DNA of 28,503 nt from a virus. Of the stretch, positions 3,734 through 7,095 are shown piece after piece. Every line of letters starts with the position of its first letter. Position 1 is the first letter of the stretch. The notes beneath the pieces were generated by a model. That model saw nothing but the letters and a program-made list of their open reading frames with translations. It was not told the origin of the DNA and searched no databases. Location of the stretch: UHGV virus genome UHGV-0003692, one strand, 5' to 3'. Position numbers and translations under genes: made by a program.

Positions 3734-4488
3734 CAGTTAGGCGCTCCTGTGTTACCGCCGCCGGTCTGTACTCCGCCGTGCGTGTGCGTCATCAGGCTCT
3801 TACCACCAGCTTTTACATCGTTAGTCACCGTGACAGGGCCAAGCATCGTCGCGGTGCCGCCGCTTTCGCCCATCCCCTGAGAGAGATTCCCGTTTATTGT
3901 CACGTTGCCGTTTAGCGTGATGGTGGGTGATGTGATCGTGGTTCCTCCTTCTGCTGTCGCCGTCAGCGCGCCGGGGGTTTTAACCGTGATGTTATGGCCT
4001 GCGGCAACTTCCACAAACGCAGCGCCATCATCAGTACGCAGTTGCGCGGCGCTGGTGCTGATTCCGCTGATTTTCTGCGCCTGAGACTGCGGACCGACGA
4101 TACAGAACGCATCCGATAAATCATGCATTCTGTCATCGACCGGTTCCTGTATTCCGCCGCTCTGCCACCAGAAATCAATACAACGATCGGCAAAAACAAC
4201 AAGACACTCATCCCCGGCTTTAATCGGAAACGTTAGCGTACATCCTCCGCCACGTGGGAATACCACTGGAACATCCACCAACAATGGGTAATTTTTGGTA
4301 ATGCGGTTGCCGTCATTATCCTTTTCAACCGAACGGATAGCAGGCTGCACAACCGCCGTCACCGCATCAGGATCGAATGACTGAATAATGCCAGGCAAGG
4401 CGACACGGATCTGATTCTTTGTTGTTTCCCGTTCAGATTTGAATGTTTCGGCAAGGTCGCCGCTGCGGGTCTGGTCAGATACTGCCAT
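3733..4488 (-). CDS. Baseplate spike / assembly protein V-like
   Basis: 251-aa ORF; Gly-rich C-terminus with ...MTHTHGGVQTGGGNTGAP typical of gpV-type spikes; ATG at 4488. Confidence 0.6.
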   Translation of the reverse strand: MAVSDQTRSGDLAETFKSERETTKNQIRVALPGIIQSFDPDAVTAVVQPAIRSVEKDNDGNRITKNYPLLVDVPVVFPRGGGCTLTFPIKAGDECLVVFADRCIDFWWQSGGIQEPVDDRMHDLSDAFCIVGPQSQAQKISGISTSAAQLRTDDGAAFVEVAAGHNITVKTPGALTATAEGGTTITSPTITLNGNVTINGNLSQGMGESGGTATMLGPVTVTNDVKAGGKSLMTHTHGGVQTGGGNTGAPN

Positions 4489-4507
4489 TTAGTAGGCTCC
4501 AGAAAGC

Positions 4508-4532
4508 AAAAAACCCGCCGGGTGGCGGGTTT
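4508..4532 (-). terminator. Intrinsic terminator closing the moron cassette
   Basis: Minus strand reads AAACCCGCC-ACCC-GGCGGG followed by TTTTTT; GC-rich stem with U-tract, overlapping the stop of the upstream gene. Confidence 0.7.
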
Positions 4533-4947
4533 ATGAATCGTAGGTTTTCAATTTTTCGAGTTCATCAGGAGGAAGTTCTATGAAGGTTTCCTCTGCTAAT
4601 TTTATCAGCCGGGGAAGCATCGAATCAGCTTGCTGATGAGCGTTTGGGCTGATGATTGCCAATATCTGATAGTGTTCATCGATATAAAGATGCTGAGCAT
4701 ATACCAAAAAATTATCACATGTCCGTTCACTCAGAGATGCTTCTGGAGGCCAGGGTTTATCGCCAGGTAGCTTTAAGTGAATTTTCCTGATGTTGGCAGC
4801 CATCGCATCATAGTTACGTTCAAAACCGCCTAACGAACCAAAACACCAGAACTGGGAACCCTTTGAAATATAATCGGCAAGCATTTGAGCATACTTATGT
4901 GCTGCAGCTAAATGACGCAATTCTCCCGTGATACTGACTTTTGCCAT
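4531..4947 (-). CDS. YafO-family toxin-like protein (putative type II toxin, mRNA interferase family)
   Basis: 138-aa ORF, ATG at 4947, 1 nt after the upstream stop. Shares motifs along its length with E. coli YafO as I recall it (ADYIS vs ADFISY; IHL...P.PP; LVYAQ...DE...ILAII.P..H vs LVYCQ...DE...LIAIL.P..H). Gene region visibly AT-richer than flanking tail genes. Confidence 0.55.
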   Translation of the reverse strand: MAKVSITGELRHLAAAHKYAQMLADYISKGSQFWCFGSLGGFERNYDAMAANIRKIHLKLPGDKPWPPEASLSERTCDNFLVYAQHLYIDEHYQILAIISPNAHQQADSMLPRLIKLAEETFIELPPDELEKLKTYDS

Positions 4948-4948
4948 G

Positions 4949-5521
4949 TCACATCCATTTAGGGGCGTTGGCTCCCAGCATCTTATGCGATGTTGAGATC
5001 AGTTCAATAGCCTCTTCACGGGTAACATTATCTGACAAGAGCTCAGCCTGGAAAGGCTGCGATTGCCTAACTTCAGCGGCCAACTGAGTTGCAGTGTTCT
5101 CGACGGCGGTCAACGCACGAACATATTTGCGTTTTAATGGGCGCAACATTTGCAGATGGCCTTGCCACATAGGGGACCTTTCCGCTTCAGAGAACATATC
5201 CACTAAATGTCCTTTAGCATTTCGGCATGCCTTGGCAAGACCTTCGAGATGGGATAAAAACTCTTCCGGAAGCTCATCAACAATGATTCTCCCATTTCGA
5301 AAAGCTTCGAGATGAGACATGCCTTCCTTCGCGGTATTTTCGATTTCTTGAGCGCGTGCAGCAATCGCGGTACAACGACGAAATACCTCTTCAGCATCTA
5401 ATCGTTGTGGCAGTTCACAAGCATTAGAGATCAGGGGTTTGAAAGCACCGTTAACAGCTTCCTGAACCTGATTCATTTGTTGTGTAATTGTTGCCAGCGC
5501 AAATGCGTAGCTAATCGCCAT
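4949..5521 (-). CDS. Hypothetical protein, putative partner/antitoxin of the YafO-like gene
   Basis: Track ORF begins with TTG at 5527; first ATG at 5521 is preceded by GAGGG at good spacing (190 aa from ATG). Predicted helical, no family recognised; stop is 1 nt before the downstream ATG. Confidence 0.5.
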   Translation of the reverse strand: MAISYAFALATITQQMNQVQEAVNGAFKPLISNACELPQRLDAEEVFRRCTAIAARAQEIENTAKEGMSHLEAFRNGRIIVDELPEEFLSHLEGLAKACRNAKGHLVDMFSEAERSPMWQGHLQMLRPLKRKYVRALTAVENTATQLAAEVRQSQPFQAELLSDNVTREEAIELISTSHKMLGANAPKWM

Positions 5522-5534
5522 ACCCAATCCCTCT

Positions 5535-5613
5535 GTCGTTTTAAACGACTATACACCACTTATTCAAAGTTAGCTGAGCGCTAAAAGTTCGCAAAGTTTA
5601 GTGATCATGCAAC
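5535..5613 (-). promoter_or_regulatory. Candidate promoter and palindromic operator for the two-gene cassette
   Basis: In a 162-bp AT-rich gap: minus-strand TTGCTA (5608-5613), 17-bp spacer, TAAACT (5585-5590); 15-bp palindrome GTCGTTT-A-AAACGAC at 5535-5549 just upstream of the ribosome-binding site; three AACTTT direct repeats. Confidence 0.35.
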
Positions 5614-5689
5614 CACCTAGCAAGCGATAAAAAATCATTATTTAGTGAATGTGAACAAACTCAACACTATGCAGAAATGTAACTTTTGG

Positions 5690-6031
5690 TTAACCATCAA
5701 CCTTTTTACACGGGAAGGAGCCGATGATTTTCGGCGCATCCATGCTGTTCTGCAGCAGTTGCACATTCAGGAATCGCGTTTCGGTACCAGGGCGACGAAT
5801 GTATTCAAACCCATAGTTGTTGCCATCTTTAGCAGGCATCAGTCCCATATCTATCTTAATGCCATCAGCACCAAGATTTGTAATTTTCTGCGATGTGACG
5901 CGCTCACCGTTAATCATGTCCATTTCACCCAACCTTGCAGTGATGGTGTAAGGCCCACAATAAGCGGTGTACCCGCTTGCTGATGCCCCAAATGACATAA
6001 AGGCAACAATTAAAATGGCTAAGGCTTTCAA
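5690..6031 (-). CDS. Small secreted protein with N-terminal signal peptide (moron)
   Basis: 113-aa ORF; N-terminus MKALAILIVAFMSFGASA then SG (signal-peptidase I-like). Start is TTG at 6031, preceded by GGGGG ribosome-binding site; no in-frame ATG preserves the signal peptide. Begins 2 nt after the upstream baseplate gene. Confidence 0.5.
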   Translation of the reverse strand: MKALAILIVAFMSFGASASGYTAYCGPYTITARLGEMDMINGERVTSQKITNLGADGIKIDMGLMPAKDGNNYGFEYIRRPGTETRFLNVQLLQNSMDAPKIIGSFPCKKVDG

Positions 6032-6033
6032 AT

Positions 6034-7095
6034 TTACCCCCGATTAAGCGAGTCCTGCGTGCGGAGATCCGCCGCGCCACGCGCTTCGCACATCATATCC
6101 ATGTACCACGCCTGGCCCCTTGTGTCGCCAGTGTACATAATCCCGCGCACAATATAAACGCCATCCGTTGCGATGCTGGCAGGCTGCGCCGTGGTGCCGC
6201 TGAGCGTGATATTTCCGTCTGTGTTCTGGTCGGTGATCTGCCCACCAGCCATCGCGATATCATTGTTCGACAGCGCGGTGCGGTACACGGAAGCCTGATC
6301 CAGCTGAATAAGCCCGTTAACCCGGATGTTCGGATTAATAAGAGCGCGGACGTTTACGCCGTTACCGATAGTCTGCTGCGGCATGCCGATAAGCCCGGTG
6401 GCGCTGTTGAGCACAATCGCGTCGTGAACATACTCGTTATTCGCCACCATCTGGCGCTGACCGTCCACAAATTGCCATGTTGCGCCACATTGTCCGGCCA
6501 CGTTATCCATAAGATGCCGTGTCATGCCGAACAGCACCCGCCCTCGAGGGTATACGGTAGCAGGCATTTCAGGCGTCAGTCCTTCGGTCGCGCCTTTGGC
6601 CTCAAAGTCTTTCATCAGCGCACGGTTCACATCTGCGACTGTGTAACCGGCAGCCAGCGTCTGTGAGGTTATACTGGTGGCAAATGCCAGATCAGTATCT
6701 GCTGCCTGAATCAGGACGTAGGTATCAACCGGACTGTCTTTTCCTGTGACCGAGTAGCGAATTTCTCCGCTGAAAATCAGCCCGTAGTTGCGGCCATCAC
6801 TCTGGCCCACGTCCGCCGCGTCAACTTCCCGCACAGTCCCGACGTCGCTTGCTGCCACCTCCGGCGCGATACCGTCGTAACCGGCAATCAGCCGCACTTT
6901 CGAAAACTCCTGCCCGGTAATTCGGTTCACAGTATCTGCCGAAAGGTTATAAATTTTGATAGTCCCTACCCGGGACGCGCTGCTGATGTTGAACCAGTCG
7001 ATCGTAAAGGTGACTTTGAAATCACTTAGCTCAATTCCCTTACCGTTCCCGTCCACAAGCTGCAGCTCGAAATGTCTCATCCAGTTCTGTGACAT
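6034..7095 (-). CDS. Baseplate hub / tail protein (P2 gpD / Mu gp44-like position)
   Basis: 353-aa ORF downstream of tape measure and two small tail genes; ATG at 7095; assignment by synteny and size. Confidence 0.45.
   Translation of the reverse strand: MSQNWMRHFELQLVDGNGKGIELSDFKVTFTIDWFNISSASRVGTIKIYNLSADTVNRITGQEFSKVRLIAGYDGIAPEVAASDVGTVREVDAADVGQSDGRNYGLIFSGEIRYSVTGKDSPVDTYVLIQAADTDLAFATSITSQTLAAGYTVADVNRALMKDFEAKGATEGLTPEMPATVYPRGRVLFGMTRHLMDNVAGQCGATWQFVDGQRQMVANNEYVHDAIVLNSATGLIGMPQQTIGNGVNVRALINPNIRVNGLIQLDQASVYRTALSNNDIAMAGGQITDQNTDGNITLSGTTAQPASIATDGVYIVRGIMYTGDTRGQAWYMDMMCEARGAADLRTQDSLNRG

Follow-up and report, generated by a model that had tools for sequence, protein, structure and literature searches.

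Does a palindrome that lies upstream of a toxin-antitoxin (TA)-like gene pair act as a DNA operator, or does it act in the messenger RNA? This question was raised by a 168-bp gap (5522-5689, up to the ATG start at 5521) in the virus genome UHGV-0003692. The whole stretch analyzed (28,503 nucleotides; hereafter, the window) represents the late region, with structural genes, of a prophage of the SEN34-like type (Brunovirus). Every gene near the gap lies on the minus strand, and the gap precedes a 190-aa gene (4949-5521; phrog_35514), the product of which is the presumed antitoxin or partner, and a 138-aa YafO-family toxin gene (4531-4947), whose ATG is located 1 nt past the stop codon of the 190-aa gene. 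A first-pass annotation had proposed that the palindrome GTCGTTT-A-AAACGAC, together with three AACTTT direct repeats and a GGTTAACC palindrome, constitutes the architecture of an autoregulated TA promoter. The results described here favor, with moderate confidence, the view that the gap contains the promoter and the structured leader of a phage moron, and that the palindrome would work as an RNA hairpin beside the Shine-Dalgarno (SD) sequence.

The gap was compared among 17-19 distinct leaders, collected from homologues of the 190-aa gene. The conservation pattern, covariation, strand asymmetry of wobble pairs and module boundaries were computed in silico, while promoter activity, start site and the role of the hairpin are predictions. 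The leader comprises approximately 67 nt and two short stem-loops, the second of which, GUCGUUU-A-AAACGAC, is the palindrome itself. This element was indeed present at 5549-5535 (minus strand; 7-nt arms and 1 central base), at around positions +40 to +54 of the predicted transcript, directly 5' of the SD sequence AGAGGG (5529-5534, minus strand), which was read from the sequence and is placed 7 nt before the ATG. A purine-rich GAGG/GGGG block was present in all leaders. Stem-loop 2 had a predicted folding energy of -5.7 kcal/mol (z -3.2), and none of the distinct leaders, which span 54-100% protein identity, had lost its pairing, even though the loop, the segment between both hairpins and the SD-ATG spacer diverged.

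In the model-fitted alignment, 96.3% of the pair cells were standard, compared to at most 53% when the partners were slid, and the observed covariation score was reached by none of 500 shuffles. The few unpaired cells in stem 2 corresponded to a misaligned clade (L015), in which the true hairpin is GTCGA/TCGAC. Both the MAFFT and the covariance-model alignments misaligned this shorter hairpin, and therefore stem 2 was tabulated directly. Compensatory replacements consisted of a U-A to A-U change in the L015 clade and of a G-C to C-G change in L125 (GTCCA/TGGAC), at a core pair that is invariant in the other leaders. Further, 5-6 independent U-A to U·G changes were found in stem 2, with no A·C change.

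Stem-loop 1 (TTAGC-GCUCA-GCUAA; 5570-5584, minus strand), predicted by RNAalifold, showed a similar behavior. Its predicted energy was -4.5 kcal/mol, with a z of -1.3; 98.8% of the cells were paired and both-side changes occurred in 2 out of 5 pairs, with an unconserved loop. The compensatory changes in this stem were U-A to C-G (L019 and L129) and G-C to U-A (L015 clade), and in the most distant clade (L008, L011 and L064; 44-52% protein identity) the arms were ACAGC/GCTGT. The segment of approximately 20 nt between both hairpins was poorly conserved. The compensatory changes in both stems show selection for complementarity. A search of the IMG/VR database with the leader motif yielded 36 matches, which, except for one chance match in coding sequence, were located only upstream of members of the 190-aa family, as were all matches of a covariance model built from the leader. 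No match to Rfam 15 was found in 5519-5689, even at E values of up to 10.

Since a co-evolving DNA palindrome could also give rise to compensatory changes, wobble asymmetry, arm spacing, position and replacement in the distant clade were used to discriminate between RNA and DNA. Considering both stems, 8-9 independent non-Watson-Crick changes were counted, all of them U·G on the sense strand and none A·C, while in a DNA site the mirror A·C change should arise just as often (one-sided binomial p of approximately 0.004). SNPs between near-identical copies were placed in the promoter spacer or created a U·G pair. The distance from GTCG to CGAC was 5 nt in L015, L049 and L125, 6 nt in L048, 7 nt in most leaders and 8 nt in L042 and L043, i.e., the arm spacing of stem 2 differed even between close relatives. 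With regard to position, no inverted repeat over the promoter core (-35 and -10) was conserved across clades. On these grounds, the palindrome appears likelier to serve as an RNA hairpin than as a DNA operator.

The promoter that would drive this leader was recognized by its conservation. Its -35 hexamer, TTGCTA (5618-5623, minus strand), has a TTG that was invariant in 17 distinct leaders, and its -10 hexamer, TAAACT (5595-5600, minus strand; TACACT in other clades), has five of six columns invariant across 54-100% protein identity and was also retained in the 44-52% identity clade. The spacing between both hexamers was fixed at 17 nt, or 18 nt in two distant relatives, with no invariant column within the 17-nt spacer. 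Based on the strong conservation that extends from the -10 box to the first stem, transcription likely starts at around A5588/A5589 (5587-5590, minus strand), 6-8 nt downstream of the -10 box, in a region in which column A39 of alignment A2 is invariant. From this pattern we infer a conserved sigma-70-type promoter for the cassette within the gap. Thus, the palindrome does lie between a promoter and the ribosome-binding site, as the first-pass annotation had it, and a promoter-like element is conserved upstream of a type II TA-like gene pair; less well supported is the regulatory role assigned to the palindrome, which is situated about 40-54 nt downstream of the predicted start and evolves like an RNA stem.

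A simple promoter scan missed this promoter because only 8 of 12 consensus positions match. The sole sigma-70 consensus match that the scan reported in the gap, TTGAGT-16-AATAAT (5664-5637, minus strand), was rejected as the main promoter, given that it was kept only at approximately 89% identity or above and lies outside the shared module; it could have arisen by chance or serve as an additional promoter particular to this lineage. TATAGT (5553-5548) was also discarded as a -10 box, as it has no -35 partner and is unconserved beyond the nearest clades. No LexA box (CTGT-N8-ACAG, as in yafNO) was seen in the gap by eye.

As for the remaining elements, the three AACTTT copies were found at 5598-5593, 5589-5584 and 5571-5566, and a fourth, inverted copy at 5681-5686, but they do not behave as a repeat set, since the three were not conserved together. 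The first copy lies in the -10 box region and the second one spans the predicted start and the 5' flank of stem-loop 1, both within conserved sequence, while the third one, at the 3' flank of stem-loop 1, was not conserved. The GGTTAACC palindrome is present at 5688-5695, yet outside the conserved module, where it overlaps the stop codon (5690-5692) of the preceding 113-aa open reading frame (ORF); it occurs twice in the window, and the swap junction with SEN34 and L006 (5687-5690) falls at it. The gap length of 162 bp given earlier fits a TTG start at 5527, whereas the ATG at 5521, common to all homologues and to RefSeq, yields 168 bp. Perfect palindromes (arms of 7 nt or more, loops of 0-3 nt) numbered 8 in the window, compared to 7.3 +/- 3.1 in dinucleotide shuffles; 5% of shuffled gaps contained such a palindrome, and 13% contained some hexamer three times. 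As these counts are near the shuffle level, none of the features is significant alone.

Taken together, these observations suggest the following sequence of events. The cassette promoter would keep the cassette transcribed from a repressed prophage, with a start near 5588, and the leader would fold into its two stem-loops, the second of which ends where the SD sequence begins. The mRNA would encode the 190-aa protein and then a translationally coupled YafO-family mRNA-interferase toxin, and the transcript would end at the terminator at 4532-4508. Hairpin 2 would act post-transcriptionally, setting or insulating the stability of the mRNA and the initiation of translation at the first gene, plausibly by fixing the local structure around the initiation site, an effect that would be the same whether transcription begins at the cassette promoter or reads through from the late operon. 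In the distant clade, a terminator-like hairpin in the leader would attenuate transcription into the genes. A more specific version, in which the 190-aa partner or the YafO ribonuclease recognizes the GUCG...CGAC hairpin and thereby sets translation or decay of its own mRNA, with the leader terminator of the distant relatives doing the same job, is considered quite unlikely. Such a portable, RNA-level control element would explain how the cassette works in many transcriptional contexts.

Several points weigh against an RNA hairpin preceded by this promoter. Compensatory changes alone would be equally compatible with a DNA palindrome whose arms co-evolve, and the wobble test relies on 8-9 events only, counted by hand on a small tree of about 19 distinct leaders. 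Further, the leader as a whole folds no better than its shuffles (z -0.26), neither hairpin is strong (-5.7 and -4.5 kcal/mol), and hairpin 2 lies between 11 and 27 nt from the ATG depending on the leader, so that abutment to the SD sequence is not universal. The promoter and the start site are themselves predictions from an 8/12 consensus match, and the clade of the window also holds a decent -10-like hexamer, the aforementioned TATAGT, which, if used, would place the start inside the palindrome. Finally, the outer GTCG/CGAC core is nearly invariant, which could also mean sequence-specific recognition by a protein, and stem-loop 1 (TTAG-N7-CTAA, approximately +5 to +19), which is nearer to the start site and has a constant arm spacing in the main clades, remains a better operator candidate than the palindrome initially flagged.

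The last two points lead to the main competing explanation, namely that the palindrome is a DNA operator to which the 190-aa antitoxin, alone or with YafO, binds as a dimer to repress the promoter. This would agree with the arrangement of the cassette, whose genes are ordered and coupled as in type II TA pairs, and with the autoregulation of K-12 yafNO and other RelE-type loci through promoter inverted repeats (PMC2814082). The near-invariance of the outer core amid diverging surroundings, the symmetric arm changes of the L015 clade and L125, which are also expected from operator-repressor co-evolution, and the more operator-like position of stem-loop 1 with its constant arm spacing are consistent with it as well. 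Nevertheless, the palindrome does not cover the -35 box, the -10 box or the start, and its arm spacing shifts by 1-3 bp, even where relatives are close (8 instead of 7 nt, or 6 instead of 5 nt), something that a rigid dimer would not tolerate. The arm asymmetries all keep the sense-strand RNA pairing (8-9 vs. 0), the distant clade bears an unrelated GC-rich hairpin with a U-run instead, and the 190-aa protein showed no domain or fold known to bind DNA. Moreover, both palindromes are unrelated in sequence, so one protein would not bind the two of them. We therefore regard an operator as unlikely, albeit the foremost of the alternatives.

A mainly transcriptional hairpin, i.e., a pause or attenuator site or a decayed leader terminator that limits the polymerase reaching the TA genes, is more doubtful still. 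It draws on the distant clade, in which a stem of 7-8 pairs followed by TTTTT takes this position downstream of the conserved promoter, and in which no terminator follows YafO. In the clade of the window, by contrast, the stem is followed by AGAGGG rather than by a U-run, termination is not expected from its 6-7 A/U-rich pairs, and no conserved antiterminator pairing was found. The least probable explanation is that palindrome and repeats are functionless chance features of an AT-rich leader. The shuffle counts within the window, together with the lack of conservation of the third AACTTT copy and of GGTTAACC, are in line with this idea, but it does not account for a pairing that persists in every distinct leader while loop and spacers diverge, nor for the compensatory and wobble-only changes. 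An anti-SD or alternative pairing of the loop or 3' arm of stem-loop 1 with the SD-ATG region, suggested by single-sequence folds, was rejected, as on inspection it was not conserved in other leaders.

The distant-clade hairpin (2952-2980 in L008 and 2951-2980 in L011, and also found in L064), located between the promoter and the ribosome-binding site at the position of stem-loop 2, has 7-8 pairs, with predicted energies of -10 to -14 kcal/mol, and lies approximately 28 nt before the ATG. With its T5 run, it could be a transcription attenuator or give rise to a short leader RNA.

The leader belongs to a unit that moves as a whole. The full block was present in 36 of 5,426 Escherichia coli genomes, and its flanks alone in approximately 210 further genomes; a scan of genome contigs gave three loci only. 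SEN34, L005 and L006 possess the same hub and spike flanks with other cargo between them, and the exchange junctions against SEN34 and prophages of the same type were located at 5687-5690 and 4531-4534, the swapped block being 5689-4532. Over approximately 4450-6050, GC content was 0.43-0.49, compared to 0.52-0.58 in the flanking baseplate genes. The pair formed by the 190-aa and YafO genes also occupies the same baseplate slot in Cronobacter; in siphovirus tail operons it is found between the tail-tube/chaperone genes and the tape-measure gene, or after the latter; in Klebsiella it lies in a lambdoid nin region, and in Serratia it adjoins a type I restriction-modification gene. DNA homology between copies in other contexts and the window begins at 5600-5632 and, in many copies, reaches approximately 4500, therefore covering the promoter-proximal part of the gap and the terminator.

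The upstream region with its conserved promoter-like motif, a predicted promoter, travels with the genes across contexts, as does an intrinsic terminator in most of them. In the window, the terminator scan placed it at 4508-4532 (minus strand; AAACCCGCC-ACCC-GGCGGGUUUUUU), beginning in the stop codon of YafO. A similar terminator, carrying compensatory changes, is located past YafO in the majority of the other contexts, but is absent from L049, L017 and the distant clade; the window's post-YafO terminator also ends unrelated cargo in the same phage slot. The assembly of gap, with its predicted promoter, two genes and terminator fits a self-contained phage moron unit.

Additional observations were made on the sites occupied. 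The slot between hub and spike of SEN34-like prophages is a cargo hotspot, which holds an unrelated 138-aa gene in SEN34, a pair of 142-aa and 243-aa genes in E. coli CS6L, and a DUF4282 gene in O145:H28 RM13514. Each of these cargos finishes at a common terminator, AACCCGCC-loop-GGCGGGTTTTTTGCTTTCTGGAGCC, apparently a shared right-hand exchange joint. SEN34_21, the 138-aa protein encoded in the same slot, was discarded as a YafO homologue because it is unrelated. In Serratia (L013 and L014, 3001-3991), cassette and leader are placed in the chromosome, with folD-side genes on one side and a type I restriction R-subunit gene on the other; this site is not among phage structural genes and resembles a defence island.

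Within the window, the cassette is flanked by the baseplate spike gene (4488-3733, minus strand) and, beyond the gap, by the 113-aa secreted-looking ORF (6031-5690, minus strand), which lies directly upstream of the gap and is preceded by the baseplate hub gene (7095-6034, minus strand). The 113-aa ORF has a signal-peptide-like N-terminus and matches phrog_3443, and a homologue is labelled in RefSeq as 'STY1065/STY2022 family phage-derived protein'. The ORF has a low GC content and a mosaic make-up, with a 5' part that is swapped in other prophages at a joint near 5914; L004 keeps only its final 55 bp, joined to another gene. Probably, this ORF is a moron in its own right, distinct from the cassette.

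Regarding the encoded proteins, the 190-aa family comprised 34 clusters, all of approximately 190 aa, enterobacterial, with 48-97% identity and matching phrog_35514. The gene always precedes a 137-138-aa YafO-family gene, with a 1-nt gap in the 14 of 14 loci examined across contexts. The toxin gene product matched Pfam PF13957 (E 4e-17; 62.6 bits, with a cut-off of 25) and is named 'type II toxin-antitoxin system YafO family toxin' in RefSeq. As it scored 31 bits against the NCBIfam YafO equivalog, under the cut-off of 153, it is a member of the family but not orthologous to K-12 YafO. The 190-aa protein gave no match to known domains; domain searches and the fold model detected no DNA-binding domain of the RHH, HTH, AbrB/SpoVT or Phd/YefM types. 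AlphaFold2 modelled it as a bundle made up entirely of helices, five of them long (pLDDT 78). PADLOC gave no defence-system match, and a literature search by the RefSeq protein accessions of the cassette returned no paper. Gene order, coupling and toxin family support the assignment of the cassette as a type II TA-like pair with the antitoxin gene first.

Residues C35, C50, H70, W119 and W189 are invariant in the alignment of the 190-aa family (A1), which also displays conservation at the C-terminal tail (SHxMLG..PKWM). Metal binding or a disulfide might explain why the Cys and His positions do not vary. In the IMG/VR contig L067 (2501-3073), the 190-aa gene is frameshifted and has several in-frame stops, possibly by sequencing error, with an intact YafO gene downstream. 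If real, this frameshift would question the need for the 190-aa protein in toxin neutralization.

Both the cassette and its leader can be related to known systems. Phage morons, which bring along a promoter and a terminator of their own, were initially reported from a tail operon (PMC3594210). Like the gene 15 moron of HK97 (PMC3594210), the cassette is an extra block of lower GC among late genes, carries its own promoter-like element and terminator, is co-oriented with the late operon and has been exchanged horizontally between unrelated phages; as with gp15, some relatives lie between the tail-tube/chaperone genes and the tape-measure gene. In contrast to the HK97 moron, the cargo here is a two-gene YafO-type toxin set with a conserved two-hairpin leader, and its expression from the repressed prophage is predicted. 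With K-12 yafN-yafO and RelE-superfamily type II TA operons (PMC2814082; PMC11980606), the cassette shares the toxin family (PF13957), the order of antitoxin and toxin, the tight coupling and a dedicated, here predicted, promoter immediately upstream. In yafNO, higBA and mqsRA, the operator is located within the promoter (PMC2814082). The cassette, however, shows neither a LexA box nor an inverted repeat over the -10 box or start site; its conserved palindromes are located in the predicted transcript and have changed in the manner of RNA stems, and its partner is an all-helical protein of 190 aa, unrelated to YafN, a Phd/YefM-type antitoxin.

The distant clade, in which a promoter, a short structured RNA and a terminator-like hairpin that would throttle read-through precede the genes, is reminiscent of type III loci. 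Among these, toxIN has a leader terminator. Unlike in such systems, a protein partner is present here and the hairpin in the clade of the window is not followed by a U-run; an RNA antitoxin of this kind was rejected, as no tandem repeats were found in the gap. The ompA leader is an example of stem-loops in a 5' untranslated region that stabilize or insulate bacterial mRNAs. The cassette leader resembles it in having one short hairpin near the 5' end and another just upstream of the ribosome-binding site, with structure conserved more than sequence. Its hairpins are weaker, stem-loop 1 starts approximately 5 nt from the predicted 5' end, and the role that we ascribe to them is putative.

As a moron control region, the gap belongs to a familiar class and is a fairly ordinary member of it. 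The analysis nonetheless delimits a complete mobile expression unit, formed by promoter, structured leader, two genes and terminator, which pairs a YafO-type toxin with the uncharacterized phrog_35514 family and moves between unrelated enterobacterial phages, and it gives the precise coordinates needed to test it with reporters and mutants. The result also warns against taking a palindrome for an operator just because it precedes a TA pair. If the hairpin were indeed a target of autoregulation at the RNA level, this would represent an unusual mode of control for a protein-protein TA system.

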